A DNA stretch of 64,000 bases from Planctomycetota bacterium (GCA_020845475.1 JADLFN010000049.1:3062-67061), one strand, 5' to 3'; positions 11,524 to 62,638 are shown, counted from the first letter of the stretch. The notes: generated by a model not told the origin, from the letters alone. A program made the numbers and translations.

Positions 11524-11575
11524 GGAGTCTCCAGAGAAAAGTACGTGCGCGCATGTTGCGGCAGTTGCCGCGGCT

Positions 11576-11965: not shown

Positions 11966-12048
11966 GAGAACTCCAGACGAAAGCGCGCGGCCAGAGGCGG
12001 GGGCAGTGACGCCCCCGCCGGCGCGCGAGCACTTTCAGCTTGTGAAGA

Positions 12049-12336: not shown

Positions 12337-12390
12337 TGTTCTACCTTTGGTTGTTGCCCATGAGGGCGGTGGTTGGCGCCGCGCGCCATG

Positions 12391-14672: not shown

Positions 14673-14699
14673 GGAGGCCGATCCTGATGCGCGGGCACC

Positions 14700-15839: not shown

Positions 15840-15978
15840 CGGTTGCCCCAGTGTATTCGGCGAAGCCGCGGTTGCGGGTACAGCGGACGGAACGTCCCGC
15901 AACCGGCGGCTGCCGTGAACAGGAACTGCGAAACCGCCTTCGAAGAAATCGTTGCGGCTCCGCCCTTCCCGGGAAAGA

Positions 15979-45220: not shown

Positions 45221-45308
45221 GGTTTTGTGGCACGGGTTGCCCTAACCCATGCCACGGCTGGAATGTCGCCGCACGTTGTACGCTCATGGCACCTCAAAGG
45301 AGAAAGCC

Positions 45309-45944: not shown

Positions 45945-46102
45945 TGCCCCAGCGAGTCGGGGCACTAGCGCCCGCGCTGAAAACTCGGAGCTCTTTGACA
46001 TTCGAGAAGGGGAAGCGTGGCTGGCGACGCCTGTCGCCAGCATGGCGCAGGAGATTTCGAACTATTCGCAAACGCGCGAGACTTCCGTATCGTTAACTCA
46101 AC

Positions 46103-47170
46103 ATGCGCCGCGTTATTCTCACCTGCCTCGCCCTGCTGTCGCTTTCGTTCATCTCGCAAGCCGAAGCGCCATCGCTTGAGCCCATACAAAGGAAGGAAGA
46201 CGTATTCAAGCTGGAAGAAGAAAACGGCTTGAAGGTGCTAAGGCTGAAGGGCAAGCAGGAACTTGTTGTCGAGTCATTGCTGCGAGCCTGGGTTGAGGCA
46301 AGCGGCAATCAGGTCATGTACCAGCCCTCGCAGGTGGCCTCCTTCAAGGTCACAATTGCCGCGCCGGAGGAGGGCAAAGCCTACGACGCGGCCGGAATCG
46401 AAGGGCTGCTGGCCGATGCGCTCTGGGAATTCAGGCTGTATCTGACGGAGCTGTCACCTCAGCGCTTTCACATTGTGCCGATCGTGGAGGCAGAGTATTA
46501 CGCGCCGCTTGTGGATGTGGCCGGGCTGAAGGCCGTGCCGGAGCATCGTGTGGTGAACCTGCGCTGGCGGACACCTTTTCCGCTGCTCTTTCTGCACAGG
46601 GCCGGCGCGACGAATCTCATGTGGCCGGAGGCGATGAACATGTCGCGCGTGCCGGGCATTGTGCTGTTGTGCGAGCGCGCCGCGCGCTTGCGCGAAATCA
46701 TTCCTTCGCTCGAGGAAATTGATCGTGCCGCAGCGCTGCGCGAGATCAGGCTTTACGAATCTGCATCTTCCATCGCGCCGGCCAGCGTCGCAAAGGCCCT
46801 TGACGAACTGGTTCCCAAGGACGTGTTTGTGCCCCAAAACGCCGTCTCGGCTATTCCCAACACGCGGCTACTGCTTGTCTGGGCGGTGCCCGAGATCCAG
46901 GCGCTGGTTCCCGGCGTGCTCAAGGCACTTGCGATCGAGCCCAAGGCCGCGCAGCCGCCGAAGGATCCGCCGAAGTGGGAAGTGCGCCGCTATGATTTGC
47001 CTGAGTCCGCCGACAGCGCGGACGTCATAGCCTCGCTGGAAAAGTTGTTTGACGCCGCGCGCACGCGCAGGCTGACGATTGTTTCAATCCCCGGAAAGAA
47101 AGCGCTGGCAGTTCGCGCCCTGCCCGAGATTCACGAACAAGTGGCTGAATTCATCGAACTCTTGAAATAG
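46103..47170 (+). CDS. Exported secretin-N-domain-only protein, paralog 1 (N0-like + Secretin_N-like modules, no pore domain)
   Basis: Signal peptide MRRVILTCLALLSLSFISQAEA. N0-like block LLRAWVEASGNQVMYQPSQVASFKVTI...RFHIVPIVEA. Terminal module RRYDLPESADSADVIASLEKLF...ALAVRALPEIHEQVAEFIELLK. Most degenerate middle module of the five. Confidence 0.7.
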   Translation: MRRVILTCLALLSLSFISQAEAPSLEPIQRKEDVFKLEEENGLKVLRLKGKQELVVESLLRAWVEASGNQVMYQPSQVASFKVTIAAPEEGKAYDAAGIEGLLADALWEFRLYLTELSPQRFHIVPIVEAEYYAPLVDVAGLKAVPEHRVVNLRWRTPFPLLFLHRAGATNLMWPEAMNMSRVPGIVLLCERAARLREIIPSLEEIDRAAALREIRLYESASSIAPASVAKALDELVPKDVFVPQNAVSAIPNTRLLLVWAVPEIQALVPGVLKALAIEPKAAQPPKDPPKWEVRRYDLPESADSADVIASLEKLFDAARTRRLTIVSIPGKKALAVRALPEIHEQVAEFIELLK

Positions 47171-47178
47171 GTGTGCCC

Positions 47179-48207
47179 ATGAAAACCCGCGTGCTGCTTT
47201 CAAGTGTGCTGCTGCTCGTGCTGGGCGTAGCGTCGTCCGCCCAGGAAAAAGCACCCGAAATGCCAGACGCCAAGGCGGAAGAAAGAAAGCCCTTGCACGT
47301 CACGAACAATACGAGCGATTTGTCCGTACTGGAGCTGATCAGATGGTGGTGCGAGTACGAAAAAGTGAGCGTCATCTATCAGCCAACGCAACTGATGAGT
47401 TTCAAGGTGACCCTGATGGTGCCAAAGGATGGCGAGGAGATTGCGCCCGAAAGACTGAGTCACCTTTTGGCGGATGCCCTTGATCAGTTCAGGCTTTGCA
47501 TCATCGAAATTTCCGAGAACCGCTATTCGATCGTGCAGGCCACGGAGGCCTGCACTCTCTCTCCTTTCCTCGATGTCGAAGCCGCGCGCAAAGCGCCAAG
47601 TTGGAAGTATGTTGTGGTGCGCATCCCGCTTCGCCACAGCGACGCGAATGTGGCGCGTGCCGCGCTGCAGAATTTGATGTCGCGCCAAGGCGGAACAGTG
47701 AATCCACTGCAAGCGCCTCAATTCCTGCTCATTGGAGATCGCGCGGATCGCTTGCAGCGGCTGATTGATGCCGTTGAAGCTTTCGAGGCCGAGGGCGCGC
47801 GCCGCACGGCCAAAACTTACATTCTTCCGCCCGGCATCAGCGCCAATAGCGCGGCTGCGGGCTTCTCGACAATCATCGGCAGTGAGCGCTACAACCAGCC
47901 CACGCCGCCCGCGGCAGCAGTAAATGAAACCACCGTTGTTGTGCGCGCCACGCCAGAGCAACTTGTGCTTTGCGATGAGCTGCACAAGCAGCTGGTGGCC
48001 AAGGCAGAGGAAATCACCGCCCAGAGCAAAGTGTCGGCGCGGCGCTACGACGTGGGCCGCACGCCCGATAAGTTTGTCGAGAGCCTGGAGAAGCTGTTCA
48101 AGAACCAGCTTTCCGTCGCTGCTGTGCCGGGTGCCGACGCCATCATCGTCAAGGCCAACGCCGCCACCCACGAAGAAGTCAAAGCCGCGCTCGAGTTGAT
48201 GAAATAG
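47179..48207 (+). CDS. Exported secretin-N-domain-only protein, paralog 2
   Basis: Signal peptide MKTRVLLSSVLLLVLGVASSAQE. N0-like LIRWWCEYEKVSVIYQPTQLMSFKVTL...RYSIVQATEA. Secretin_N-like YVVVRIPLRHSDANVARAALQNLMSRQGGTVNPLQAPQFLLIGDRADRLQRLIDAVEAFE. Ends ...IIVKANAATHEEVKAALELMK. Confidence 0.75.
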   Translation: MKTRVLLSSVLLLVLGVASSAQEKAPEMPDAKAEERKPLHVTNNTSDLSVLELIRWWCEYEKVSVIYQPTQLMSFKVTLMVPKDGEEIAPERLSHLLADALDQFRLCIIEISENRYSIVQATEACTLSPFLDVEAARKAPSWKYVVVRIPLRHSDANVARAALQNLMSRQGGTVNPLQAPQFLLIGDRADRLQRLIDAVEAFEAEGARRTAKTYILPPGISANSAAAGFSTIIGSERYNQPTPPAAAVNETTVVVRATPEQLVLCDELHKQLVAKAEEITAQSKVSARRYDVGRTPDKFVESLEKLFKNQLSVAAVPGADAIIVKANAATHEEVKAALELMK

Positions 48208-48231
48208 TGCGGCGCAGTTTCGTTTTCTTCC

Positions 48232-48256
48232 AAACGCGCGCCTTGGGCGCGCGTTT
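48232..48256 (+). terminator. Hairpin between paralogs 2 and 3 (possible terminator/attenuator)
   Basis: Stem aaacgcgcgcc, loop ttg, stem ggcgcgcgttt, followed by CATTTG, in the 137-nt gap. Confidence 0.45.
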
Positions 48257-48344
48257 CATTTGCCAGTGCAGCATCGCGAGTGGTTCGCGACCTACCCACA
48301 ACCCCGAAACCCGGAAGTCCGGCCCCCGCCGGAGGAGAACCGTC

Positions 48345-49208
48345 ATGTCCCGAATCCTAGCCGCGCTATTTGTTTGCTCGCTGGGTGTGTTGTTCGCATT
48401 TGCACAGGAAGCGCCGCGCGCTGCACCCGCGCCGGAGAAGCGCGTTCTCGAGGTAGGCGACGTGCCCTTCCTGGTCACGGAAATCGGCGGCAAGCCGGCT
48501 TGGAAGTTGCGCGGCCAGGTTGAAATCCCGCTGGCCGAGCTCGTGGGTGCGTGGGTTCGCGCCACGGGTACGCCGGTGCCCATCAACACGCGCGCTTTGG
48601 CCTACACGTGCAGTTACCAGGCGCCGCCCGATGGCGTGACGCTGACCGGCGACGCCATTACTGACTTCGTCTCCGACATGCTGGCGCAGGTGCGCATGGT
48701 GCTTGTCGGTTTCTCCTCGGGCCGCGCGCAGATTGTGCAGTCGGCCGAAGCCGCGACGCTGGCGCAGGTGGTCAATCGCACGGAGTTGGAAAAGGCCCCG
48801 GCATCTGAATGGGTCACCTGCTGCCTGATGTTCCGTTACGCCGAGCCAAACGCGGTGCGTGCGGCCTTGCAGAATCTCGTCTCGCGCCAAGGCGGCATCG
48901 TCAACCCCGTCTCGGGCGCCAACGGCCTGCTGATCACTGACCGCGCCGATCGCGTGCGCCAGATGGCCAAGCTCGCCGACACGCTCGACTCGACGGGCCA
49001 GGGCGAGCAAACGCTGGAGAAGTACGACTTGCCCGAGAGCATTGACGCGCTGGAGGCGGGCAAGGCGCTGATGTCACTCTTCCGTCCTGCAAGCAAGTCG
49101 CTGCCGCAGATGGAAGTATCGCTCGTGCCCGGCAAGGCGCGGCTGCTGATCCGCGCCAACGCCGCGCAGCACGCCGAGATCAAGCGCGCCATCGAGTTGA
49201 TGAAATAG
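48345..49208 (+). CDS. Exported secretin-N-domain-only protein, paralog 3
   Basis: GGAGGAG upstream of the ATG at 48345. Signal peptide MSRILAALFVCSLGVLFAFAQE. ...RAQIVQSAEA. WVTCCLMFRYAEPNAVRAALQNLVSRQGGIVNPVSGANGLLITDRADRVRQMAKLADTLD. Ends LEKYDLPESIDALEAGKALMSLF...LLIRANAAQHAEIKRAIELMK. Confidence 0.75.
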   Translation: MSRILAALFVCSLGVLFAFAQEAPRAAPAPEKRVLEVGDVPFLVTEIGGKPAWKLRGQVEIPLAELVGAWVRATGTPVPINTRALAYTCSYQAPPDGVTLTGDAITDFVSDMLAQVRMVLVGFSSGRAQIVQSAEAATLAQVVNRTELEKAPASEWVTCCLMFRYAEPNAVRAALQNLVSRQGGIVNPVSGANGLLITDRADRVRQMAKLADTLDSTGQGEQTLEKYDLPESIDALEAGKALMSLFRPASKSLPQMEVSLVPGKARLLIRANAAQHAEIKRAIELMK

Positions 49209-49213
49209 CATCT

Positions 49214-49245
49214 GAGCAGGGGCGACATATATGTCGCCCCTGCTC
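49214..49245. repeat. Palindromic element GAGCAGGGGCGACATAT/ATATGTCGCCCCTGCTC (copy 2 of the GGGGCGACA palindrome), between paralogs 3 and 4
   Basis: Perfect 32-bp palindrome 6 nt after the paralog 3 stop. Its core ggggcgaca..tgtcgcccc is shared with 39794..39815. Confidence 0.7.
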
Positions 49246-49310
49246 CGCGTCATTTGCGCCATCGCTGCGCATCCTCGCGCGTTTCAAATTCGATCGCCCT
49301 GGAGAAAACC

Positions 49311-50195
49311 ATGACCCGCCTGATTGCCGCAACCCTCGTCATCGTCTGCGCACTTGCTGTTGGCTTTGCACAGGAGAAACCGCCCGTGCTCGGGCGCGGC
49401 TCTTCAACGCTGCCCTTTGAAGTCACGGCCGTTGACGGCAAGCCCGCATGGATCGTCACGGGCCGCGGCACTGTCTATGTAGAAGACCTGCTCGGCGGCC
49501 TGGCCAACGCGACCTCGCTGCGCGTGTCGTTCACGGCGCGCGCCGCGGAATCGCGTCGCGCGGCGCTGGGATATCTCGCGCCGGATTCGGGCATGACGCT
49601 CAAGAGCGAGCAGATCCCCGCGTTCGTAAGTGAACTTCTCGCGGGGCAGGGTCTGACTATTGTCGGCTTCACGCAGGGCAACGCGCGCGTGGCGCGCATC
49701 GACGAGGCGGCCAGCCTGTCCACGCTCGTCACCGACGCCGAATTGACGAAGATCAACGACGCCGAGTGGGTCGCGCTGAACCTGAGTCTCGTCAACGCTT
49801 CGGTCGGCATGTCGAACCTGCTGCACATCTACAAGGGCGCCAACGTCACGGCCTACGACTATCCCGGCGGCGTGCTGATTTACGGCCCGGCTGAGCGCGT
49901 GCGCACCACCGCGCGCCTGTTGCGCGAACTCGACAAAACCGGCGTGGGTTCCATCACCGTGCGCACCTACGACCTGCCTGAGGGCGTGAAGGCCGACAAC
50001 GCGCGCCTGATTCTCTCCGGCCTGTTCCCCAGCGACACCACCGAAGTCAAACAGATGGACAGCGGCGTGAGCGTGGTTTCGCGCTCGACGCCGCGCGTGG
50101 TTGTCATGGCCGCACCCGTGGGCAACCGCCTGATCGTGCGCGCAAGCATCTCCGACCACACCATGGTCACTCAGGCGCTGGCGGCCATGAAGTAG
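49311..50195 (+). CDS. Exported secretin-N-domain-only protein, paralog 4
   Basis: GGAGAA upstream of the ATG at 49311. Signal peptide MTRLIAATLVIVCALAVGFAQE. ...NARVARIDEA. WVALNLSLVNASVGMSNLLHIYKGANVTAYDYPGGVLIYGPAERVRTTARLLRELD. Ends VRTYDLPEGVKADNARLILSGLF...LIVRASISDHTMVTQALAAMK. Confidence 0.7.
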   Translation: MTRLIAATLVIVCALAVGFAQEKPPVLGRGSSTLPFEVTAVDGKPAWIVTGRGTVYVEDLLGGLANATSLRVSFTARAAESRRAALGYLAPDSGMTLKSEQIPAFVSELLAGQGLTIVGFTQGNARVARIDEAASLSTLVTDAELTKINDAEWVALNLSLVNASVGMSNLLHIYKGANVTAYDYPGGVLIYGPAERVRTTARLLRELDKTGVGSITVRTYDLPEGVKADNARLILSGLFPSDTTEVKQMDSGVSVVSRSTPRVVVMAAPVGNRLIVRASISDHTMVTQALAAMK

Positions 50196-50253
50196 CGCAC
50201 GGTGCCATTGCGTTGTAGCCGCGCTACACTGGCGCCCTCACGGAGGTTTGGCC

Positions 50254-51366
50254 ATGGCGAAAATGACGCGGCTTGGACTGATGGTTGCGGCAGTGCTGGC
50301 GCTGGCGGTGGGAGTGGATTCGCAAGATCCGCCCAAGGCAAAGGCGGATTGGCGCAAGGTCGGGCTTTCGACGGAGTTCCTGGCCCACCGGCTGGTGGGG
50401 GAAACCACGGATCACTACGAGTTCACTGCGCTGGATCTGATCAGCGAGTGGGGCCGGCGCGGCGAAGTGACGGTGCGCTATGACGCGCGGCAGGTGGCCT
50501 CGGTGCCAAAGCTTTCGCTGCGGGGCGTCAAGGAGCCGAACAAACTTTCGGCCTTTGACCTGTGCCAGCGCGCGCTCGAGAACAACGGCCTGACGCTGTT
50601 TCCCGAGGCGGGCACGCCGCGCGCGTTCGTTGTGGACGCCGGCTACAACGCCGGTGAGCGCGCGCCGCTGGTTAAAGAGGAAGAGCTGGCCTCGATGGCA
50701 ACAAGCGAGTGGGCGGCGCTGCTTTACACGCTCAAGAGCGCGGGCGCTGCCCATGTGGTTTCCATGGCGCAGTCGGTGATGTCGCAGAGCGGCGGCCGCA
50801 TCCAGAGCACGCCCGGCCAGCCCACGCTGCTGGTAGTCGATCGCGCGGCCAACGTGATGCGCGTGCTGGAAGTGTTCCGCCAGGTGGACCTGCCGCGCGA
50901 AGACCCCAAGACGGTGCCCTATCAGCGTGCGACCAAGGCGCACCAGTTCCAGTTGGCCAAGACACTGCAGGCTTTCCTTGACCGTTACGCTGCGGAGATC
51001 AACGTGGCGGCGGGCAAGTTCTACGTTTCCTACGAGCACGAGACGCGCATGCTTGTGGGCATGGTACCGCAGGCGGTGTGCAGCTTCCTTGATGCCGCCA
51101 TCGACGCCGCAGACAAGAACGTTCAGGCCAAGCGCGACGAAGACGAGTTGCAGGGCCCGAACTTCGCGTGCTTTGAAGTGCCGATTCCACCGGAGCAAAA
51201 GGCCGCGGCCATTGAAGCCTCACTGCGCCAGTTGTTCGAGCCCGAGCAGGTGGCCGGTGACATGCGCACCATGATCAAGGGCGACCAGACCAAGAGCCTG
51301 GTGGTGCGCTGCCGCAAGTGGCTGGAAGCCGGCGTGCGCGACGCCCTTGAAACACTGATGAAATAG
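50254..51366 (+). CDS. Exported secretin-N-domain-only protein, paralog 5
   Basis: GGAGG 7 nt upstream of the ATG at 50254. Signal peptide MAKMTRLGLMVAAVLALAVGVDSQD. WAALLYTLKSAGAAHVVSMAQSVMSQSGGRIQSTPGQPTLLVVDRAANVMRVLEVFRQVD. Ends ...SLVVRCRKWLEAGVRDALETLMK. Confidence 0.7.
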   Translation: MAKMTRLGLMVAAVLALAVGVDSQDPPKAKADWRKVGLSTEFLAHRLVGETTDHYEFTALDLISEWGRRGEVTVRYDARQVASVPKLSLRGVKEPNKLSAFDLCQRALENNGLTLFPEAGTPRAFVVDAGYNAGERAPLVKEEELASMATSEWAALLYTLKSAGAAHVVSMAQSVMSQSGGRIQSTPGQPTLLVVDRAANVMRVLEVFRQVDLPREDPKTVPYQRATKAHQFQLAKTLQAFLDRYAAEINVAAGKFYVSYEHETRMLVGMVPQAVCSFLDAAIDAADKNVQAKRDEDELQGPNFACFEVPIPPEQKAAAIEASLRQLFEPEQVAGDMRTMIKGDQTKSLVVRCRKWLEAGVRDALETLMK

Positions 51367-51596
51367 TTAGGCACGATCGCGGAATTGCCGCCAGTTCGCC
51401 TCGTGTCGTGCCGATGCGAAATGGGGTTCCCTTTACACCGCCAGTTTTCGCGCACGTCAGATTGTGACTTAGAGACAAGCCCTTCCGAGCCCGACGCCCT
51501 GGAACCCGCTTAAAATAAGGCTTTTTTGGCATCACACCGTTTGCTCATGGTGTTTACTTAAGTGAGCGCGCGGGGGTGATCCGGGTGGAGGGCAGC

Positions 51597-53033
51597 ATGC
51601 GTGCAATGTCCAAAGTGGCTTTTGGCCTGATGCTGGGCCTGCTGGGCGGCTCGCGCCTTTGCGCTCAGGATGATTCGTTGAAGGACGCCTTGGCCCAGCT
51701 TGAGTCTCCCTTTGCGGAAGACCGTGCCAATGGCAAAGCCGAGCTGATTGCCCGCCAAGGCGACATTGCGCGAGAACTGCGCAACGCCATGGCCGACGCG
51801 CCCGAGTGTGTGCAGGCCGAATTGCTTGATGTCGTGCAGCGCCGTCGCGATGGCGCGCTGGTGCAGCAGGCCGCGGCGCTGCTGGGCGCGCGCGGTGACC
51901 GGCTTGTGCTTGCCGCTCGCGATTACCTTCTGGCGCTGAAGGGCGAAGACCTGAAGCTCGACGCTGAGGCGCTGGGTGCGGGCAAGGGCGCGTGGGAAAA
52001 CTTTCTGGTATTCCGCCGGCGGTACGCCATCACACTGGCCTTGATCGAGGCCCAGCTGAAGCCGGGAAAATTCATGGGCCAGTTCGACGCCTTGCGCGCC
52101 GAGTTTGGCGATCTGCTTGACAATGACCTGCTGGCGCTGGCACAGGCCAGGCCCGACTACAAGGAAGCTCTGCAAAAGGCCGCGGCGGACCGCGTCGCGC
52201 GCGGTCTCGAGGGCGGCGACGTAATCCGCAACGCGCGCTTTCGCCGCCTGCACAGCGGCGAGATGCTCGTGCTTGCGCTTGAGGTGATGGGCGCGGGCAA
52301 AGTGGACGCCGATGCGCAGTTGCAGCTTTCAAAGCAGGAGTCCTCCACCTTCGCAGCCGCAGTTTACATGGTGCAGGACTTGCGCGTGGCGGCCGTGCGC
52401 GCGCTGGCCCAAAGCGCCAACGGCGACGATCTTTCTGACCGCCTTGCCGCCTTCTATGCCACCGCGTGTCGGGACTCGACGCACGAATTGCTCAAGCGGC
52501 TGGTGGATCAGGACTCGCTGCGTGAAGAAGTGGAAGTGGTCTTGGCGCGCTTTGGCCGCACCGAGCTGCTCGAGGCGCGTCTGGCCGCGCTGCGCTCGCG
52601 TTATCAGCAGGCGGCCACCGGCCAGGTCGTCGCCAATGCGCGCTCCGCGGCGGAGGTTGAAACCCAGGCGCGCAACAGCGTTGCCTACCTTTATCTGCGC
52701 GCGGGCGACGCGGCTTCCGCCGAGCGGGAGTGGCAGGCGGCCATTGAGCAGGTGCAGGTGCGCATGAACGCAGCAACGGGCCGTGCGCGCAGCGCGCTGG
52801 CGGCCACCCACGGTGCGATCTACTATAATCTTGCCTGCGCCCAGAGCCTGCAACACAAGACTTCCAAGGCGCTGAGCAGCCTGCGAAAGGCGGTCGAGAA
52901 CGGCTATGCCGAGTTTGGCTGGTTGCTTGAAGATGGAGACCTTGAAAGCGTGCGTTCAACCAGAGCGTTTACGGACTGGTTCAAGCACGTCGCTCCGCCT
53001 TCGTTGTCTGATGCTCTTGCTGATGGCCGTTGA
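51597..53033 (+). CDS. Exported HEAT/TPR-like repeat protein (T1)
   Basis: Signal peptide MRAMSKVAFGLMLGLLGGSRLCAQD. N-terminal motif LESPFAEDRA. C-terminal TPR-end module IYYNLACAQSLQHKTSKALSSLRKAVENGYAEFGWLLEDGDLESVRSTRAFTDWF. Confidence 0.65.
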   Translation: MRAMSKVAFGLMLGLLGGSRLCAQDDSLKDALAQLESPFAEDRANGKAELIARQGDIARELRNAMADAPECVQAELLDVVQRRRDGALVQQAAALLGARGDRLVLAARDYLLALKGEDLKLDAEALGAGKGAWENFLVFRRRYAITLALIEAQLKPGKFMGQFDALRAEFGDLLDNDLLALAQARPDYKEALQKAAADRVARGLEGGDVIRNARFRRLHSGEMLVLALEVMGAGKVDADAQLQLSKQESSTFAAAVYMVQDLRVAAVRALAQSANGDDLSDRLAAFYATACRDSTHELLKRLVDQDSLREEVEVVLARFGRTELLEARLAALRSRYQQAATGQVVANARSAAEVETQARNSVAYLYLRAGDAASAEREWQAAIEQVQVRMNAATGRARSALAATHGAIYYNLACAQSLQHKTSKALSSLRKAVENGYAEFGWLLEDGDLESVRSTRAFTDWFKHVAPPSLSDALADGR

Positions 53034-54300
53034 AGCATGGCTCGCGCCCGCACTTGCCGCGCAGGGCGAACCCGTGTTTTCGCCGACCGCCGGCCCGGAC
53101 TCTCCCTTCGCTGAAGAGCGCGCCTTGGCCGGACTGGGCCAGAGCCGGGCCGAACGGCTGGAAGCCGCGCGTGCCATTTTGCGCGCGGGCGAACCGGCAA
53201 CCCAGCTGGCGTCGGCCATCGACACGATCGTGCGCGCGCGCGACAAGGCGGACATTGCGCTGATTGCGCCCTGCGCGGCCAGCCTTGATCCTGCCGTGGC
53301 CATGGGTGCGTCAGCCGCGCTGAAAGCCTACGGCCGGGATGCGCTGGCCGCTCTCGAAGCGCTGGCGCCGCAAGCGCTTGACGCGCCGACGCGCAAGAAG
53401 CTGCGCGAAATGCTGCTGCGTGATCACGTTCAAGCGTGTTGCCGCCGCGACCGCGCGATCAATCCGCTGCAACTCGAATACGAGGCGCGGCTTGATGAAC
53501 TGGACAGCATCAATGAAAACCTGGACGTGCTGCTGCTCTCGCTGCTCCGCGAGGCGCTGCCGGATTTGCGCAAGGACATCAACGGGCAGTACTTCAACCG
53601 GCGTTACTATTACCTGCCCACTGAAGATAGCGAACCCGCGTTCATTGAATATGGCGCGCTGGTGATCGCCGCTCTGGCGCGGCGCAAGCCCGAAGTGCTC
53701 AAGCGCGAGACCGAAGGCCTGATGGATCAGAATGCGCCGCCATCGTATTACAATTATTGGGGACAGATGCGCCAGAGTGCCACGCGCGAGCTGGCCTGTT
53801 TCCTGGCGCGCAACGGACAGAGCGCGGCGGCGGTCAAGATGGTCAGCGACATGGAATCCATGCTGCGCTATCAGCCCGATCCCGCGTATGCGGCGGGCGT
53901 GCACCTCGATGTTGCAGCGTCCATGATGTCAAGCGGCGTGAAGGACGAACGCAAACCGGGCCGGTTTTCGCTGGCGGCAGGGCCCTTCGAAGCGGCCGTT
54001 ATCATGGAGCACATCGAGACGGCGTTGCAGGCCGCCGGACAGTCAAGCCTGCCGGTGGCGTCGCAGGCCCGCTATCTGAAGGCGCGGCTGCTGATCGCGC
54101 AGGGAGACGATGGCGGCGCGCTGCGCGAGCTTGAGGAATCCATCGAAGCCTCGGATGAGCCCATGCTGCTGCTGGCCGTGGATGGCGCGTTTGCGAGCCT
54201 TGCAGAAGAACGCCGCTTCCAGACGCTGCTGCAATACACGGCGCTGATCGCGCGTCGCGTGGATGAAAACGCGCGGCCCTTCAAGGCCAAAGACCGCTGA
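53011..54300 (+). CDS. Exported HEAT/TPR-like repeat protein (T2), paralogous to T1 at the N-terminus
   Basis: Leader MLLLMAVEAWLAPALAAQGE, then PDSPFAEERA (compare T1 SPFAEDRA). Overlaps the T1 3' end. The start is ambiguous (53011 or 52933). Confidence 0.55.
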   Translation: MLLLMAVEAWLAPALAAQGEPVFSPTAGPDSPFAEERALAGLGQSRAERLEAARAILRAGEPATQLASAIDTIVRARDKADIALIAPCAASLDPAVAMGASAALKAYGRDALAALEALAPQALDAPTRKKLREMLLRDHVQACCRRDRAINPLQLEYEARLDELDSINENLDVLLLSLLREALPDLRKDINGQYFNRRYYYLPTEDSEPAFIEYGALVIAALARRKPEVLKRETEGLMDQNAPPSYYNYWGQMRQSATRELACFLARNGQSAAAVKMVSDMESMLRYQPDPAYAAGVHLDVAASMMSSGVKDERKPGRFSLAAGPFEAAVIMEHIETALQAAGQSSLPVASQARYLKARLLIAQGDDGGALRELEESIEASDEPMLLLAVDGAFASLAEERRFQTLLQYTALIARRVDENARPFKAKDR

Positions 54301-54316
54301 CAGCCCGGGGAAATTC

Positions 54317-57265
54317 GTGCCCACGATCGGCTTTGAGAACTACTGGTTCCTGCTGAGCGCTCTGCCGGTTGTGGGAGTCAGCGCCTGGTTGTGGCTGCGC
54401 ACGGGTACCCCCCTGTCGCGCCCGCGCAGGTTTGTCGGGGCGGTCGGCCTCGTGCTGGCGCTGCTGGGTCTGGTGCTGGGATCGGCCGGGCTTTTCTGGA
54501 ACGTGGGTTCGCAGCGCCAGACGGTGTGGGTGCTGGTCGATCGCTCGCTTTCTGCAGGCACGCGCGGAGAAGCGAAGCTGGCGGGCGTGCTGCGCGAGTT
54601 GTCGCAGAGCCTTCACGAGGACGACTTGATCGGGGTCATCAGTTTCTCCGACGTGCCGCAGCTTGAAGCCGAGCCGCAGAGTGCGCGGCGCTTCAATCCC
54701 GATTTTGCGCTCGCGCCAATGAGGCCCTCCGAGGAGACGTTTTTGGCGCCGGCGCTGGCCTTTGCGCGCCAGCGCACGCCCCTGGGCACTTCGCCCGTTG
54801 CGGTTGTGGTCAGCGACGGCCACGACACCAGCCTCAGCTACGGCGGCGAACTCCAGAAGGAGGCGCGCGCGGTGGGTGTGAAGGTTTACACGCTGGCCGT
54901 GGATTCCGACCCGCTGCCCGAAGTTGCGCTGGCGGACTTCGCCGCGCGCGTGGCGGGCAGCGAACGCACAAAGCTGGTGGCCGATCTCGTGGTTTACTCG
55001 ACGGTGCGCCAGAACATCAAGCTTACGCTGACCGTCGATCGCAAGCAGGTCGCGGTCAAGGAGCTCAGTGTGGATGAAGGCCGCACGCCCGTTCGCCTGC
55101 TCTATGAGCCGCCGGTGATCCAGGCGGTTTACGTGGTGGAAGCCAGCGTGGCTTCGAGCCGCGATACCTCGACGTCCAATAACGCGCTCAAGCTTGCGGT
55201 GCGCGGGCCGGGCGAGGCGAACATTCTGCTCGTGCACGGCGCAGAGGGGCCCGATGAAGCGCTCGTGCGCGCGCTCAAGGCCGCGAGCCTGAAAGTCACG
55301 ACGGGCCCGGCCGCGACACTGCCAAGCGATCCCGTTGAACTCGCGCGCTACCAGGTAATCGTGCTCTCGGACGTGCCGGCCACGGCCTTTTCGACCACTA
55401 CGCTGAGCATGCTTGAAATGTTCACTCGTCAGGGCGGCGGCTTGGCCATGATCGGCGGCCCGCGCAGTTTCGCGCCCGGCGGCTATTACGAGACTGCCGT
55501 GGAGAAGGCCCTTCCGGTGACGTGCAACGTGACTGAACGCGGGCGCAAGCAATCTCCGGCCATGGTGATCGCGCTGGACATATCGGGCTCCATGGGCGCG
55601 ACGGCCGGGCGCGGCCGCGAAACCAAGATTGACCTGGCCAACACCGGCTGCGTGCTGACGATCCAGTTGCTGGGGCCAGGCACGCACTTTGGCATGCTGG
55701 CCACGAACACCGAGAACAACTGGGTCGTCCCGCTTGGTCCGGTGACAAACTCCAACAAGAACGCGGCGATCCAGGCCGCCAAGGGCAACCGTGCGGGCGG
55801 CGGCGGCATCAACATGCTGACAAGTGTGACGGAGGCATTTGCCAAGCTGCGCAGCGCCAATACCTCGACCAAGCACCTCGTGCTGTTCGTGGACGGCGAC
55901 GACGCCGACGAGCAGGAGGGCGTGGTCGAAATGATCCGCCAGGGAATCGACCGCGACAAGATTACGGTCAGTGTCATCTGTCTGGGGCGGGGCAAGGACG
56001 TACCCTTCCTTCAGGCCTGCGCCCACGCGGGCCAGGGCCGCTTTGAGCTGGTCATGGATGCCAATAATCTGCCTGTCGTCTTCTCGCGCGAAGCAGCGCA
56101 GGTCGGGGGCAACTTCATCCGGGAGGAAGAATTCAGGCCCAAGGCGGGTGTGCCGGGCTTCTTTACGGAAGGTTTCGACTTTCAATCAAAGGAATCACCT
56201 CCGCTTCTTGGCTACGTTGCCACAAGCGCGCGTGAAAACGCCGACACCTGGCTGTGGGCCGATTCCGAAGAAGAAAAGCCCGAGCGCCCGCTGCTGGCCA
56301 CGTGGCATTACGGCCTTGGCAAGTCGCTGGCTTTTGCCAGCGATGCGCGCGACCGCTGGGCCGACAAGTGGTTGCCTTGGGGCGGCTACAACGCGCTCTG
56401 GCAGCGCTGGATTCGCTGGCTGTTGCCGCGCCCGGAGCAACTCAGCGGCGTGGAGACTGAGTGGACCATGTCGCGTGACGGCCCCGAAGTCACGCTCTCT
56501 TTCTTTGACCAGGAAGGCGCGCCGCGCCAGTTGATCGATCCGGTGGCCGAAATCTCGCTGCCCGACGGCGTGCAGGTGGATACGCCGGTGGTGGCTGTGG
56601 GCTCGGGCGCATATCGCGTGCGTTTTCCCAAGACCGGCAGCGGTGTTTATGCAACCACTGTGCGCGAGCGCCCGCCCAACGTGGAACAGCGCCTTGTGGC
56701 GCGCGAACATCAAGTGTTTGTGCCGCTCGATGAACTGCGCCGGCGCCCTGCCAATGTCGCGGCGCTTTCCGCCCTCGCACGCATCACCGGCGGCAAACTC
56801 GTGGACGAAGCCGCCTATCTGGGCAGCGTGGAGCCCGAGACAACCTACGACCAGGTGAAGCCGTCAACGGCGTTCTTCTGGCTGGGCCTTCTGGGCATGT
56901 TCCTGGCACTGGGCGCTCGGCGTTTTCCGACGGTGTGGCTGCCGCGCGAAGTGACCTCCGCTGCCGCGCGCGAACAGGCGCAACAGCGCGAGCTGGCTTC
57001 GCGTGCGGCCTTTGAGCGTGTGCGCGAGCGGCTGGACACCCGCGTGCGCGCGGCTAAGCCGCAGGCTCCCTCGGCGGTGCTTCCGCCTTCGATGCCGCCG
57101 CCTGTTGCCCCGGTAGTGCCCGTCACTCCGGTCGCCACGGTCGCCCCTGCCCCGCGCAGCCCGACGGAAAGGCCCGCGCCAGCACCCGATGGCGGCGAGG
57201 GACTGCTTGGCGCCATGCGCCGCGTGAAGAAAGAGCTCGACGCTCGCAAGGGGTCTGGGCCATGA
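54317..57265 (+). CDS. BatA-like N-terminal double-TM protein with two VWA domains and a glutamine-amidotransferase-like middle domain
   Basis: GFENYWFLLSALPVVGVSAWLWL plus a second TM. VWA 1 VWVLVDRSLSAG...VVVSDGHDTS. GATase1-like ILLVHGAEGPDE...VIVLSDVPA...GGGLAMIGG. VWA 2 MIDAS motif VIALDISGSMG...LVLFVDGDDADE. C-terminal TM and a Pro-rich tail. GTG at 54317 is the likely start (ORF track: 54263). Confidence 0.75.
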   Translation: MPTIGFENYWFLLSALPVVGVSAWLWLRTGTPLSRPRRFVGAVGLVLALLGLVLGSAGLFWNVGSQRQTVWVLVDRSLSAGTRGEAKLAGVLRELSQSLHEDDLIGVISFSDVPQLEAEPQSARRFNPDFALAPMRPSEETFLAPALAFARQRTPLGTSPVAVVVSDGHDTSLSYGGELQKEARAVGVKVYTLAVDSDPLPEVALADFAARVAGSERTKLVADLVVYSTVRQNIKLTLTVDRKQVAVKELSVDEGRTPVRLLYEPPVIQAVYVVEASVASSRDTSTSNNALKLAVRGPGEANILLVHGAEGPDEALVRALKAASLKVTTGPAATLPSDPVELARYQVIVLSDVPATAFSTTTLSMLEMFTRQGGGLAMIGGPRSFAPGGYYETAVEKALPVTCNVTERGRKQSPAMVIALDISGSMGATAGRGRETKIDLANTGCVLTIQLLGPGTHFGMLATNTENNWVVPLGPVTNSNKNAAIQAAKGNRAGGGGINMLTSVTEAFAKLRSANTSTKHLVLFVDGDDADEQEGVVEMIRQGIDRDKITVSVICLGRGKDVPFLQACAHAGQGRFELVMDANNLPVVFSREAAQVGGNFIREEEFRPKAGVPGFFTEGFDFQSKESPPLLGYVATSARENADTWLWADSEEEKPERPLLATWHYGLGKSLAFASDARDRWADKWLPWGGYNALWQRWIRWLLPRPEQLSGVETEWTMSRDGPEVTLSFFDQEGAPRQLIDPVAEISLPDGVQVDTPVVAVGSGAYRVRFPKTGSGVYATTVRERPPNVEQRLVAREHQVFVPLDELRRRPANVAALSALARITGGKLVDEAAYLGSVEPETTYDQVKPSTAFFWLGLLGMFLALGARRFPTVWLPREVTSAAAREQAQQRELASRAAFERVRERLDTRVRAAKPQAPSAVLPPSMPPPVAPVVPVTPVATVAPAPRSPTERPAPAPDGGEGLLGAMRRVKKELDARKGSGP

Positions 57266-57834
57266 CGCGACTGCTTGTGATTCTTGCGCTTGGATCTCTG
57301 CTCGCGTGTGCGTGCACGGGGGGCAGTTCAACCACGCTGCGGCCAGCGGCGGATCGGCCCATTATCGGCCCTGACGGCGTTTTCTGGGATGCGATTGAAG
57401 CCGCGCGCGGAGGGCACACGCAGCGCATGGGCCGCGTGCTCAGCACGGGCTTTGTGCACCGCGCCATCTTGCCCAACACCCCACGCGCAGAATTCAGCGA
57501 TGAAGAGAGCTTCATTTTCGCCAACGAGCGCATGGAGCGCGAGCTTGCGCCCTTCAATTCAATCCGTGAACGGCTCTGCAAGCGCTATACCGGCTGGCTC
57601 GACGAGACCACGCGCGGCCGTGTGATCGAGGCAGGGCGCCCGAGTTACGAAATCAAGTATAAGGACGGTTACGGCAGCGCGCGCGGCCCCAATACGGCGA
57701 CGATCAAGGTCAACCTGCACCAGGCGCAAGCCAAGACGCCGAAGGTGCTGGCAGTGAGTTTCATCCAGGACGGCGACACTTGGCGCATTGACGGCTTCTC
57801 GCCCGACCCGCTGTTTGGCGAGTTCATTCGCTAG
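57262..57834 (+). CDS. Lipoprotein (190 aa)
   Basis: MTRLLVILALGSLLACACTGG lipobox. ATGA overlap with the upstream VWA gene. No family recognised with confidence. Confidence 0.6.
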   Translation: MTRLLVILALGSLLACACTGGSSTTLRPAADRPIIGPDGVFWDAIEAARGGHTQRMGRVLSTGFVHRAILPNTPRAEFSDEESFIFANERMERELAPFNSIRERLCKRYTGWLDETTRGRVIEAGRPSYEIKYKDGYGSARGPNTATIKVNLHQAQAKTPKVLAVSFIQDGDTWRIDGFSPDPLFGEFIR

Positions 57835-58721
57835 CCGCGTTCTTCAATGGCGTTGAGCACGCGCAAATTGACGAAGCCCGCGACGGGCAGCAGCACCAGC
57901 GCGCAGATTGCCACGGGCGTGGAAAGCTCAAAGGCTACGGTGGCGAATAGCACGACGACATCGAGAAGCGTCAGCGCAAGCAGCAGCGCCCCGTTGGCCC
58001 AGTTGCTGTCGCGCGAGAAAACGAACCTGGCGGCGGGCCAGCTTGCAAAGGGTATGATGGCCACGGCGGCCAGCACGATCAACATGCGCCAGATCACGCC
58101 CCAGGTCGAAGCCCAGAATCCGGGCCCGCTGTTTTCTTCCTCTTTAACCTTCGCGCTGCCTGAGAGCCCGGTGATGACGAGCGGCTGCGCGATGCTTGCC
58201 TTGCGATCTTTGTCCTGCGAGCGCACGATGCGCATCAGGTCGAGTTCGCACTTGCCGGAGTCCGCGCCGGACTTTGTCGTTGCGCGCGCCTGTACCACCT
58301 CATCGGCTTCAGCAGCTTTTTCGAACACTTTCTGCGGGTCGTCGGGAGTTTGCTTGCCGAGCACGGACTTGAAGATGCCGGTGGCTCGCTCCTCAAGGTC
58401 GGGATCCGGCGGCTTGACGGCTTTGAGGCCGGCGACTTCATTGAGGCGATCGAGCATGCGCGCACGGATCTCACTGTTGCTGGTGTCGCCCAGCACGGGC
58501 ATGACGACCAGGCGCTGCTCACCGTTCTCGCGCACAACCTGCGAGTAATGCTCGGCCAGTTGCTCCAGCGCGTCATCGAGCGCTTCGCGCTGCAACGACT
58601 TGAGGTCGCTGGGCGGTTTGAAGAAGTTCGCGTAAACCAGCCAGCCGACTATGGCCAGCGCCGCCAGGCCGATGCCGACGGAGAACACCTTGAAGCCGGG
58701 GATGTTGTCTAGCAGTGCCAC
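57831..58721 (-). CDS. Membrane protein (1 N-terminal + ~3 C-terminal TM helices), hypothetical
   Basis: 296 aa. VFSVGIGLAALAIVGWLVYANFF, with C-terminus FWASTWGVIWRMLIVLAAVAIIPF...LLLALTLLDVVVLFATVAF...ICALVLLPVAGFV. Last gene of the sigma/coiled-coil operon. Confidence 0.55.
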   Translation of the reverse strand: MALLDNIPGFKVFSVGIGLAALAIVGWLVYANFFKPPSDLKSLQREALDDALEQLAEHYSQVVRENGEQRLVVMPVLGDTSNSEIRARMLDRLNEVAGLKAVKPPDPDLEERATGIFKSVLGKQTPDDPQKVFEKAAEADEVVQARATTKSGADSGKCELDLMRIVRSQDKDRKASIAQPLVITGLSGSAKVKEEENSGPGFWASTWGVIWRMLIVLAAVAIIPFASWPAARFVFSRDSNWANGALLLALTLLDVVVLFATVAFELSTPVAICALVLLPVAGFVNLRVLNAIEERG

Positions 58722-58823
58722 TCTGTGCCCCTGGAGCGAACCGAATCAGTTATCACTGATCTACGCCGCATTTCCAGCAAATCAGCGCTCCACAAAAACC
58801 GGCGCTTGGTAATTGAGAATCTG

Positions 58824-61514: not shown

Positions 61515-61530
61515 GTTCTTTCCTGCGCCG

Positions 61531-62526
61531 TCATCCGCCGGCCGGAGGGTCTTCACGGGTGGAATTGGCCGGATCCGCAAGTGCTGAATTGGGCGAAAGC
61601 GCCGCGGCGGAATCGGCCGCGGGGCGCGCCTTGGCAACGCGCCGCCGACGCTTGGGTTTGCTCGCCCGGGCGGTGGCGCTTTCGAGCACGCGCAGATCAA
61701 TGGCGTCTTCACGGCCGCCCATGAGCTGCTGCAGCTTGCGCAGCGCCTCGTTCTCAATCTGGCGCACGCGTTCGCGCGTGAGGTTGATCTTCTCGCCGAT
61801 TTCGGAGAGCGTCATCGGCTTGCCTGTGCCGATGCCGTAACGCATGCGCAGGATTTCGCTCTCGCGCACATCCACGGCGTTCAGCAGGTGCACAAGCTTC
61901 TGCAGTTCGGCGTGAAGCACCACTTCGTCGCCGGGATCGCTGGCGCGCTCATCGGCGATGATGTCGTTGAAGCTGTTGTCGCCATCGGGCGTGGAAAGCT
62001 CCGTGGGTTGATTGCCCGCGTTCATCGCGCGGCGAATCATCTCGACCTGCTCGCGGTTGAAACCCAGCTCGGCGGCGATCAGGGCCACGTCCGGAGGTTG
62101 TTCGCCTTTGCGCGTGATTTCGGCGAGCTTTTGTTTCACGCGCGAGATCCATTCCACCATGTAACTGGGCACGCGCACCGTTTGTGCGCTATTGAGCAGC
62201 GCGCGGCGCATGGACTGCTTGATCCAGTGCACCGCGTAAGTCGAGAACTTGTTCTCGCGCCCGGGGTCAAACTTCTCGACGGCGCGCATCAGCCCGATGT
62301 TGCCCTCGGCTATCAGGTCCATGAACGAGAGCCCGCGGTGCAGGAACTTCTTGGCCTCGGAGATGACCAGCCGCAGATTGGCGCGGATCATCTGGTCGCG
62401 CGCGGCTGCGTCGTTTTCGCGCACCCGGCGCGCCAGCGTGCGCTCCTCCTCCAGCGTGAGCAGGGGCGTCTCGCGGATGTCCTTCAGGTACATGTCGAAG
62501 TTGCCGTCGTCGATACGGGTGCGCAT
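61531..62526 (-). CDS. RNA polymerase sigma factor, sigma-70 family (RpoD/SigA-like, short form) with basic C-terminal tail
   Basis: [20 protein letters not shown]; [11 protein letters not shown]...[19 protein letters not shown]...[13 protein letters not shown]; region 4 [27 protein letters not shown]; tail [13 protein letters not shown]. Confidence 0.85.
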
Positions 62527-62638
62527 GTCGCCTGATTAAACCCGCTTGCGGGTGCGGTTACAAGCTCTACAGGCCAACGATTCGCGGGGCGCACTCCACT
62601 CGCACCCCCGTTTCTGCCGATAAGCAGGCGGAGGCCTC

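Follow-up and report, generated by a model that had tools for sequence, protein, structure and literature searches.

Positions 51597-57834 of a Planctomycetota MAG window (64 kb, the whole stretch of DNA that was analyzed) hold a quartet of genes on the plus strand, encoding two exported helical-repeat proteins (T1 and T2), a 982-aa inner-membrane protein with two VWA domains and a lipoprotein. We consider it probable that this quartet is a self-contained, conserved envelope operon of a single uncultured lineage of Planctomycetota, with a core gene from an ordinary protein family, and that the adjacent secretin-N array is a separately delimited neighbor. The quartet is not a new machine. It represents a system of known kind that has been rearranged in this lineage, since the family of its core gene is found elsewhere in MoxR-DUF58-BatA operons.

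The four genes are confirmed as real, overlapping or near-abutting genes. Orthologs of all four were found with 37-92% identity and E-values down to 0, which excludes chance open reading frames. T1 (51597..53033, plus strand as all features below; 478 aa) has a Shine-Dalgarno sequence GGAGGG (51587-51592) 5-10 nt before its ATG. Its hydrophobic N-terminus and AQ site are conserved, an SPFAEDRA motif is present in the N-terminal part and a TPR end-of-group domain (NCBIfam NF047558, E-value 4.5e-13) lies at the C-terminus. Whereas its last 55 aa find matches in thousands of proteins, full-length relatives form only ~25 representative clusters. T2 (53011..54300; ~429 aa) has an uncertain start between 52906 and 53011, the candidates being ATG 53011 or the upstream ATG codons at 52933 and 52906, and therefore overlaps T1 by at least 23 nt. 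It ends with the same NF047558 domain (4.6e-8). Besides this domain, T1 and T2 give only sub-threshold TPR/HEAT matches. Plain BLASTP between them is marginal (E-value 0.014), while profile-profile alignment with hhalign gives a 94.9% probability (E-value 4.5e-8, 358 collinear columns) and an SPxAxER motif is common to both. T1 and T2 are thus, by their sequence profiles, distant paralogs, as a preliminary description of this DNA had proposed. Orthologs of T1 (in the same position) and of T2 are present in all loci of the clade.

The VWA gene (54317..57265) starts with GTG at 54317, 16 nt past the T2 stop, which gives a protein of 982 aa with the MPT N-terminus common to its orthologs. Its stop overlaps the start of the lipoprotein gene (57262..57834; 190 aa) in the sequence ccATGAcg at 57262-57265. 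Together with the T1/T2 overlap, this bears out the tight or translational coupling described earlier. The lipobox Cys18 and a GPDGxFWDA motif are invariant among the lipoprotein orthologs, which lie directly 3' of the VWA gene in all clade loci and in the more distant Planctomycetaceae MAG L020. No Pfam or NCBIfam family matched the lipoprotein. Its AF2 model has a pLDDT of 81.9 and matches NTF2-like folds weakly (best E-value 0.017), so that the mature protein is probably NTF2-like. Signal peptides and topology were assigned by sequence rules only; signal-peptide-like N-termini and the lipobox Cys are kept in all orthologs, consistent with the exported and lipoprotein nature ascribed to the partners of the VWA protein. 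Profile HMMs (Pfam, NCBIfam) also agreed with the described domain content of the quartet. PADLOC models, which cover MoxR-vWA type conflict systems and known anti-phage defence, had no match at E<=0.01 to T1, T2, the VWA protein, the lipoprotein, the neighboring TM296 or the array proteins S4 and S5.

The VWA protein belongs to the VWA_2 - GATase1_like - VWA family. Pfam assigns VWA_2 to residues 88-187, VWA/VWA_3 to residues 434-603 and GATase1_like to two stretches; the AF2 model has a mean pLDDT of 80.2 and a pTM of 0.62 (all AF2 models are single chains), and conservation was read from a family alignment of 20 sequences with 23-93% identity. The N-terminal segment (54341..54487) comprises TM1 (residues 9-28), an Arg-rich cytoplasmic loop RTGTPLSRPRRFV and TM2 (residues 35-57). 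Both are helices in the AF2 model; a hydropathy scan at threshold 1.6 flags TM2 alone. The loop has four Arg and no acidic residues, and all family members in the alignment keep R37. The positive-inside rule predicts a periplasmic ectodomain, consistent with the BatA-like protein BB0173, whose VWA domain was shown by experiment to be periplasmic (PMC5700661). The segment was also compared with BatA_N: no PF07584 match was found by Pfam at E<=0.1, and when its first 72 aa were aligned by hhalign to the N-termini of 53 BatA proteins, the probability was 19.6%. The TM-loop-TM-VWA layout is only analogous to that of BatA.

VWA1 (54491..54898) carries a complete MIDAS (D75-x-S77-x-S79, T141, D167), all five residues being invariant in the alignment. 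Its best sequence matches among solved structures are BatB (3ibs, 7.6e-14) and an aerotolerance-related membrane protein of B. fragilis (4jdu, 5.7e-13), and Foldseek aligns it to 3ibs_B with a TM-score of 0.72. An all-beta, Ig-like spacer (residues 203-296; 54923..55204) with seven strands in the model and no assignment to a sequence family follows. The GATase1-like domain (PF07090) is split in an N-terminal part (residues ~302-400; 55220..55516) and a C-terminal part (56234..56422) with the family signature FTSDARDRW, in which S675, D676, R680 and W681 are invariant. The match to STM1381 (3soz, 4e-25) correspondingly consists of two segments, at profile positions 313-407 and 620-693, flanking VWA2; the second segment aligns to 2gk3 as well. 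VWA2 (residues 414-597; 55556..56107) is inserted between both parts and matches the ArnB-type VWA2 5a8j, CLCA1 (6pyo) and ITIH4 in the PDB. S423, D526 and G527 are invariant and D421, G424 and S425 at least 90% conserved. By our reading of the alignment, the DISGS sequence and the conserved Asp are kept and a Gly (GGGGI) occupies the usual MIDAS Thr position. A second beta-sandwich (filamin/Ig-like, residues 712-802; 56450..56722), with its strands seen in the model, has weak filamin repeat matches (1e-3). The last region (56864..57262; AF2 helices 850-869, 879-908 and 964-977) contains TM3 (residues 850-869) and a cytoplasmic tail that leads from a basic helix through a disordered, Pro-rich stretch to another basic helix, GLLGAMRRVKKELDARKG, which is conserved and lies at the C-terminus, the pLDDT between the helices being below 50. 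R868/R869 are invariant and A966/R968 nearly so, distant homologs included. Like the four Arg of the TM1-TM2 loop, the RR pair at the end of TM3 supports the predicted topology. The architecture given in the preliminary description (a double TM, two VWA domains, a GATase1-like domain, a C-terminal TM and a Pro-rich tail) is thus retained, with two corrections: the N-terminus is not a recognizable BatA_N domain, and the complete, family-invariant MIDAS belongs to VWA1 instead of VWA2.

Each of ~20 related MAG loci from Planctomycetota carries the quartet in this gene order, and wherever flanking sequence is available in the clade, order and spacing are both maintained. In L020, a trio of one T gene, the VWA gene and the lipoprotein gene is found with the ATGA-type overlap, adjoining fliI/fliH. 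Rearrangements mark both ends of the quartet: a break between the array and T1 in L005, and, on the 3' side, a TM296-coiled-coil-sigma-RodA block that is inverted between sublineages. RodA lies immediately 3' of the lipoprotein gene in 14 clade loci, and most others have it no more than a few kb away. The window also carries murB, murC, murG, ftsW and ddl.

The large protein is not a novel combination of domains but belongs to a family of known architecture. A protein search gave 85 homologs, 80 or more with the same precomputed Pfam set, and family members, retrieved with patterns for FTSDARDRW, GGGLxMxGG and the VWA1 MIDAS (496 relatives), occur in more than 496 species-representative genomes from many phyla. 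They are annotated as ‘VWA domain-containing protein’, ‘glutamine amidotransferase’ or ‘Ca-activated chloride channel homolog’ (e.g., in Sorangium, Polyangiaceae and Rokubacteria). Among the 58 distant loci (~30% identity) with at least 3 kb of upstream sequence, the fetched flank encodes BatA in 50, DUF58 in 42 and MoxR in 20, upstream of the VWA-family gene where mapped. The clade differs: no MoxR, DUF58 or BatA was found within 10 kb on either side in 21 clade loci (~450 kb in total; phmmer, for MoxR with a query from L087), nor in the 64-kb window by six-frame phmmer (E<=0.01) or by Pfam on 30 large ORFs. The description of the module as Bat-like, which the BatB-type matches of VWA1 also favor, but lacking a nearby MoxR and DUF58 is hence correct, because these genes are common in the distant flanks and absent from the 21 clade loci and the window. 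Their absence is a derived, lineage-specific state.

MoxR, DUF58 and BatA may be encoded elsewhere in the genome, and the quartet would then have been displaced from a classical MoxR-DUF58-BatA system, with which it would still work in trans. We regard this as a serious possibility, though somewhat short of probable. The normal linkage of the family to these genes argues for it, as do family members of 1,591-1,653 aa that are fused to BatA and carry PF07584, single ORFs that span the VWA-family protein and BatA in six Rokubacteria/Methylomirabilota loci, and Sorangium loci, where the gene already lies several kb from DUF58-BatA or has none within 10 kb. In addition, the cytoplasmic parts keep the family-wide residues R37, R868/R869 and A966/R968, which suggests a retained cytoplasmic partner. 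The empty flanks in the clade and in the window argue against it. A system in trans is compatible with the quartet as a conserved envelope operon except on its independence.

The array in front of the quartet (46103..51366) encodes five exported paralogs, S1-S5, that contain only Secretin_N (PF03958 in all five); its membership in the module is not established. A role as secretins (GspD/PilQ) was ruled out: PF03958 is the only domain, no C-terminal secretin pore domain was found with Pfam or TIGR02517, and the TIGR02517 scores of 34-43 bits, over model positions 32-258 of 600 only, are far below the cut-off of 351.

Directly before T1 lies a conserved non-coding leader (51373..51599), detected by DNA conservation among loci whose proteins are only ~40-50% identical. 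It contains GGAAC (51501-51505) and, after ~20 nt, TTTGG/TTGGCA (~51525-51531), a candidate ECF-type promoter by sequence. A hairpin with the arms GCTCA (51543-51547) and TGAGC (51563-51567) and a GTTTAC/GTTAAT-type loop follows, and then the Shine-Dalgarno sequence. The hairpin folds in nearly all sequences, and the native arms are more stable than swapped arms (-12.9 vs -9.6 kcal/mol, p=0.013). The leader is 230-440 nt long across loci and always directly 5' of T1. A sequence-only model located it exactly once in each of the 20 clade loci, L005 among them, in every case before T1, and did not find it in L020; Rfam gave no match.

According to another, unlikely reading, raised in the preliminary description, the five secretin-N proteins and the Bat-like quartet form one co-expressed, MoxR-independent, envelope-spanning assembly. 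The array is co-oriented with and adjacent to the module in 19 of the 20 clade loci with an upstream flank, in two upstream contexts, which could mean that it belongs to the module. The adjacency of S4/S5 and T1 survives where peptidase M20 replaces sucD (L002) and where sucD is absent upstream (L006, L007, L010), and all products are predicted to be exported. However, much of the surrounding order (HEAT-p307-sucD upstream, RodA/sigma downstream) also recurs across many clade loci, so the adjacency may be inherited synteny. Moreover, the S genes vary from one to six copies per clade locus (family HMM) next to a constant quartet, a TetR and methyltransferase gene pair is inserted inside the array of the closest relative (92%), and no S genes were found near 69 distant VWA homologs with the family HMM. 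In L005 the array stays beside sucD, ~7 kb from the module, and T1 retains its leader with no S genes upstream. No convincing terminator between array and T1 was found in the gap of the window (51367-51596), and a strong one is also absent in 6/17 loci examined, so read-through is possible there; in 6/17 (L001, L011, L013, L014, L018, L019), the final S gene is succeeded by strong terminator-like hairpins with a T-run (-19 to -28 kcal/mol). The proposal of a single assembly is neither refuted nor supported. It seems distinctly improbable that the double-VWA protein, uncoupled from MoxR, DUF58 and BatA, would build an undescribed periplasm-spanning structure with T1, T2, the lipoprotein and variable S proteins, under a dedicated ECF-type promoter responding to envelope stress and a structured leader RNA.

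An active amidotransferase or hydrolase function of the GATase1-like domain, exerted in the periplasm on the cell wall, would explain the RodA and dcw neighborhood, yet this is highly improbable and already disfavored, as no Cys or His is invariant or nearly so in either half of the domain (residues 300-410 and 620-700) in the family alignment, the nucleophile-elbow position reads GGGLAMIGG, the depositors of 3soz, 2gk3 and 3rht named no enzymatic function, and the trio of L020 lies beside flagellar and not cell-wall genes. With no invariant Cys or His, and the Cys-His-Glu triad thus not conserved, the domain is presumably not catalytic.

Under the preferred reading of a self-contained operon, the VWA-family gene would have been separated from BatA, DUF58 and MoxR in this lineage and be flanked by lineage-specific partners instead. 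The quartet would have a conserved promoter, probably of the stress type, and a leader of its own, with the secretin-N array as a neighboring, separately delimited unit. The VWA protein would insert with three TM helices in an N-out/C-in orientation, so that ~790 residues (VWA1, the Ig-like spacer, the GATase1-like domain with VWA2 and the second Ig-like domain) would be periplasmic. The VWA1 MIDAS, and possibly also the DxSGS site in VWA2, may bind a metal ion whose coordination a partner would complete with an acidic side chain. The translationally coupled, periplasmic T1 and T2 and the lipoprotein would be the likeliest partners, in an arrangement that would parallel that of BatA/BatB and BatC, a TPR protein. 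Without a conserved nucleophile, the GATase1-like domain would serve as a structural module. The most likely role, as far as sequence features indicate, would be that of a MIDAS scaffold that is anchored in the inner membrane, faces the periplasm and may extend to the outer membrane via the lipoprotein.

VWA membrane proteins associated with Bat/MoxR are very widespread. The clade offers a natural experiment, in which such a protein is freed from MoxR, DUF58 and BatA and has three exported partners dedicated to it. It indicates which parts are able to work as a unit and presents T1, T2 and the lipoprotein as candidate MIDAS ligands. It is useful for annotation that MoxR-DUF58-BatA operons of Myxococcota, Rokubacteria, Planctomycetota and other groups regularly contain the gene of the VWA_2 - GATase1_like - VWA protein at a late position. 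Since the organisms are known only as MAGs, the findings are of limited practical value.

Compared with known systems, the S proteins share Secretin_N and the N-terminal third of TIGR02517 with GspD, the type II secretion secretin, but have no match to the C-terminal part of this model. The GATase1-like domain resembles STM1381 (3soz), STM3548 (2gk3) and a Planctomyces limnophilus ‘(GATase1)-like protein’ (3rht), with E-values of 4e-25, 5e-23 and 1e-13, respectively, and Foldseek TM-scores of 0.73-0.75 relative to the target. These are stand-alone proteins of ~250 aa, 3soz and 2gk3 being deposited as (putative) cytoplasmic proteins, whereas the domain described here is predicted to be periplasmic, split by VWA2 and embedded in a membrane protein.

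The MoxR-DUF58-BatA-BatB-BatC clusters of Bacteroidota, Spirochaetes and many other phyla share with the quartet a VWA1 closest to solved BatB/BatA-type domains, two TMs followed by a VWA domain, exported partners that may be of TPR type and the periplasmic location of the VWA domain (predicted here, experimental for BB0173); distant homologs of the 982-aa protein lie in such clusters. One report on Leptospira describes bat mutants with growth and appearance as wild type (PMC3557215). The quartet differs in the absence of MoxR, DUF58 (PF01882) and BatA within 10 kb in any clade locus and in a VWA protein that is three times larger, has no detectable PF07584 N-terminal domain, nests its second VWA in a GATase1-like domain and ends with a C-terminal TM. 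T1, T2 and the lipoprotein have no detectable homologs in classical clusters.

With the VWA_2 - GATase1_like - VWA family itself (PF13519 + PF07090 + PF00092), the 982-aa protein aligns collinearly over its full length, with the same invariant residues, Pfam architecture and domain order (VWA1, GATase1-like with nested VWA2, C-terminal TM) and with the signatures FTSDARDRW, GGGLxMxGG and the VWA1 MIDAS. Family members, for instance those of Sorangium, Polyangiaceae and Rokubacteria, are only 23-33% identical to it, and those of myxobacteria have an N-terminal extension before TM1. Other family members are mostly flanked by BatA, DUF58 and MoxR, whereas the clade has T1 and T2 upstream and the lipoprotein downstream.

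The preliminary description of a tightly coupled unit of four plus-strand genes (T1, T2, the VWA gene and a lipoprotein gene) was confirmed, with the same coordinates and overlaps. T1 (51597-53033) begins with an ATG at 51597, preceded by a GGAGGG ribosome-binding site. T2 stops at 54300, and its 5' end shares 23 nt or more with the 3' end of T1; the ATG at 53011 is the first canonical start in frame beside its hydrophobic segment, and longer forms may start at 52906 or 52933. The VWA gene (54317-57265, 982 aa) starts with a GTG 16 nt past the T2 stop, yielding the MPT... N-terminus common to its orthologs, and its stop overlaps the start of the lipoprotein gene (57262-57834) in an ATGA at 57262-57265. 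The genes downstream are convergent (57831-58721, minus strand), and the unit therefore ends at 57834. The window has a GC content of 59-66% and contains many long antisense ORFs. We regarded these (for example 54281-56185, minus strand, 634 aa) as artefacts of the high GC content, given that strong orthologs exist for the plus-strand genes (E=0 in the case of the VWA gene).

The VWA protein matches VWA_2, VWA/VWA_3 and GATase1_like in Pfam. A profile built from 20 family members and compared with solved structures in the PDB relates residues ~64-223 to BatB (3ibs, 7.6e-14) and to an aerotolerance-related membrane protein of B. fragilis (4jdu, 5.7e-13), and residues 415-584 to the VWA domains of ArnB-type, CLCA1 and ITIH proteins. 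Residues 313-407 and 620-693 each align with one half of the GATase1-like proteins STM1381 (4e-25) and STM3548 (5e-23); these halves lie on either side of the second VWA domain (VWA2), which is therefore inserted into the GATase1-like domain. In the AlphaFold2 model (mean pLDDT 80.2, pTM 0.62), two N-terminal helices lead into the first VWA domain (VWA1) and a beta-sandwich. A Rossmann-like half-domain, VWA2 and the remainder of the GATase1-like domain come next, then another beta-sandwich and the third TM helix. The cytoplasmic tail has a Pro-rich disordered stretch and ends in a helix. The Foldseek matches are in agreement with this layout. The double VWA, GATase1-like and C-terminal TM assignments made earlier thus stand, while the proposed BatA-type N-terminus is not supported, since BatA_N was not recognizable in the N-terminal segment by Pfam or hhalign (19.6%). 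An intact MIDAS applies to VWA1, in which D75, S77, S79, T141 and D167 are invariant in the family alignment down to 23% identity. VWA2 retains DxSGS and an Asp, and in our reading carries a Gly at the usual MIDAS Thr position. The GATase1-like part has no Cys or His conserved in the family alignment, making a role as amidotransferase very unlikely.

The loop between TM1 and TM2 contains four Arg and no acidic residue, and TM3 is followed by RR. By the positive-inside rule, the middle part of ~790 residues would be periplasmic and the tail cytoplasmic. In BB0173, a BatA-like protein of Borrelia, the VWA domain was found by experiment to be exposed to the periplasm (PMC5700661). The predicted cytoplasmic parts keep residues that are conserved family-wide (R37, R868/R869 and, in the terminal helix, A966/R968), which we read as a hint that a cytoplasmic partner may still be in use.

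The N-termini of T1 and T2 are hydrophobic and end in A-Q, followed by an SPxAxER motif, features conserved in all orthologs. Both proteins end in the NCBIfam ‘TPR end-of-group’ domain (residues 408-465 in T1; window 52818-52991, plus strand). As had been proposed from the shared N-terminal motif and TPR-like ends, they are distant, collinear paralogs (profile-profile comparison, 94.9%, E 4.5e-8). A HMMER search of 1.84 billion representative proteins found only ~25 clusters of full-length T1-like proteins and more than 3,000 representative proteins with the C-terminal 55-aa module of T1 alone, often in two to five copies per protein. Against the PDB, the T1 profile matched over these 55 aa only, to four entries annotated as ‘PDZ domain-containing protein’ (9is4, 9iox, 9imn, 9iiu), for which we found no paper in the literature. 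The lipoprotein has no family in Pfam or NCBIfam; its lipobox Cys and a GPDGxFWDA motif are invariant, and its confident model (pLDDT 81.9) gives only weak fold matches to NTF2-like proteins. A metagenome scan with the lipoprotein profile returned only eight loci, mostly short and with the same pattern as those already known. A short metagenome contig (L096, 2363-3073) has a weak match to the family (4e-6) with no VWA gene upstream and may represent a stand-alone relative.

Close relatives of the VWA protein (45-92% identity) occur only in Planctomycetota MAGs, whose isolate names (such as Fred_18-Q3, Ribe_18-Q3 and HK-STAS) may point to activated sludge or bioreactors as their source. The order and spacing of T1, T2, VWA gene and lipoprotein gene are the same in every locus of this clade with enough flank; these comprise five loci retrieved by protein look-up, a further fourteen in the genome collection and the informative metagenome loci. 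In one locus (L002, 7221-8727; GCA_964268005.1) the T1 ortholog is split into two overlapping frames with stops in translation, which reflects either a frameshift in a pseudogene or an error in the assembly. Rearrangements at both ends mark the borders of the quartet. Downstream, a block of the flanking gene TM296, a coiled-coil protein, a sigma factor and RodA is found in either orientation, and upstream glnA takes the place of the secretin-N genes in L005. The block itself (window 57831-63805; compare L003 and L004), with a coiled-coil protein of ~900 aa and a sigma-70-type factor, is conserved in the clade, and in relatives of ~50% identity the entire block is inverted with respect to the quartet. 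In a more distant Planctomycetaceae MAG (L020, 32% identity), one T-like gene (profile E 4e-45) is joined by the VWA gene and by a homolog of the lipoprotein gene (5e-24) with the same start/stop overlap, and the three adjoin fliI and fliH. Together with the clade loci, this trio identifies T-VWA-lipoprotein as the conserved core.

Upstream of T1 lies an array of five exported paralogs (S1-S5; window 46103-51366, plus strand), each with a match to Secretin_N and to no more than the N-terminal part of GspD. The array and the quartet were proposed to form a single envelope-spanning assembly, which we keep open as a minority possibility and regard as improbable. A family HMM detects between one and six S genes in each clade locus that has upstream flank. 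In 19 of these 20 loci they are co-oriented with T1 and immediately precede it, and this adjacency occurs in two upstream contexts, with sucD in many loci and without it in L002, L006, L007 and L010 (peptidase M20 in L002). However, the number of copies varies whereas the quartet is constant, L005 keeps sucD-S4-S5 together at ~7 kb from the quartet, and the same HMM finds no S gene near the distant VWA homologs. In the closest relative (L001, 2010-3813; GCA_964269145.1, 92% identity), S2 and S3 are separated by genes for a divergent TetR regulator and for a methyltransferase, which shows that the array can be interrupted. By itself, adjacency is weak evidence, since the order HEAT-p307-sucD upstream and RodA/sigma factor downstream also recurs in many clade loci. 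The position of S genes relative to sucD varies, with three before and two after it in L013 (1732-6894), and in L014 (168-1097) one S gene is inverted beside p307.

The region between array and T1 also argues against a single assembly. Throughout the clade, the gap of 230-440 nt shows conservation of its DNA sequence, and six loci (L001, L011, L013, L014, L018, L019) have a hairpin of -19 to -28 kcal/mol with a T-rich run just past the last S gene. The equivalent hairpin in the window is weak (-10 kcal/mol), and a scan of 45-59 kb for sigma-70 promoters and terminators gave nothing above shuffle expectation, so read-through from the array into T1 is possible. A sequence model of the non-coding leader (window 51373-51599, ~230 nt) detects a single copy in each locus (L001-L019, L092 and L094), in every case ahead of T1, including four loci outside model building and L005, which lacks an upstream S gene. 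The leader contains GGAAC/GAAAC, ~19 nt and TCTGG, a putative promoter that resembles the -35/-10 pattern recognized by ECF sigma factors (compared with the sigma-E consensus). Downstream, a hairpin with a conserved GTTAAT in the loop and arms that differ between genomes folds in nearly every leader. RNAalifold predicted no pairs in the leader, the variable arms being misaligned, and the hairpin was assessed by single-sequence folds with a swapped-arm control. Native arm pairs fold at -12.9 versus -9.6 kcal/mol for swapped ones (Wilcoxon p=0.013), a suggestive and not a strong result, since every left arm is rich in C and every right arm in G. Rfam has no match in the whole window or the gap upstream of T1. 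We consider the leader a candidate operon-specific promoter plus cis-regulatory RNA.

Co-regulation of array and quartet through a shared element is not supported, as GGAACCCGCTT shows no enrichment in the window (with at most two mismatches, 18 matches versus 23 expected) and the region upstream of S1 shows by eye no leader in common with T1. Just before the S1 start codon, CGTTAAC (46090-46096) resembles the CGTTAAT loop of the T1 leader, and a perfect 9-bp inverted repeat, GCTGGCGAC-gcct-GTCGCCAGC, lies at 46020-46041. Between sucD and S1 lies an ORF of 231 aa (45249-45944) without a match in Pfam or homologs in the fetched related loci, and a perfect hairpin (45943-45968) comes after it. 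This ORF may be lineage-specific or not a gene. Elsewhere in the window, a dcw-type cell-wall cluster (10564-17187; ddl, murB, murC, murG, ftsW) and a second FtsW/RodA-family gene (62639-63805) indicate that the organism has peptidoglycan synthesis genes. A 1,068-aa protein (36588-39794) carries an adenylate/guanylate cyclase domain along with a STAND NTPase (NB-ARC/AAA_22) and TPR repeats.

A reading of the quartet as a defence system was rejected. The VWA_2-GATase1_like-VWA architecture recurs at ~30% identity in at least 496 species-representative genomes, from Myxococcota, Rokubacteria/Methylomirabilota, Chloroflexota, Bacillota, Verrucomicrobiota, Hydrogenedentota and other Planctomycetota; a literature search on PF07090/DUF1355/GATase1-like retrieved nothing on this family. 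Among 58 distant loci for which 3 kb or more of upstream sequence was available, the fetched flank contains a BatA-type gene in 50, DUF58 in 42 and MoxR in 20, located upstream where mapped, with MoxR often beyond the fetched flank. In several lineages BatA is fused to the VWA-GATase1_like-VWA protein, and these fusions are evidence that both proteins cooperate in the canonical system. Such single ORFs are found in the Rokubacteria/Methylomirabilota loci L068, L076, L077, L081, L083 and L084, and two proteins of 1,591-1,653 aa (P0057 and P0062, one from a Polyangiaceae MAG) carry PF07584 with the family domains.

Neither MoxR, DUF58 nor BatA is present in the 21 clade loci or in any frame of the 64-kb window. 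The original characterization as Bat-like but lacking MoxR and DUF58 is thus accurate locally, and this lack is a derived state of the lineage; the interpretation as a whole is partly supported, and the proposed union with the array is a minority possibility. In the most likely mechanism, which we infer at every step, the VWA protein would form a periplasmic scaffold that depends on metal (MIDAS) and has its anchor in the inner membrane. The quartet is a lineage-specific variant of the known, functionally unexplained Bat/MoxR-associated VWA systems, in which the VWA membrane protein has exchanged its usual neighbors for two periplasmic helical-repeat paralogs and a lipoprotein.
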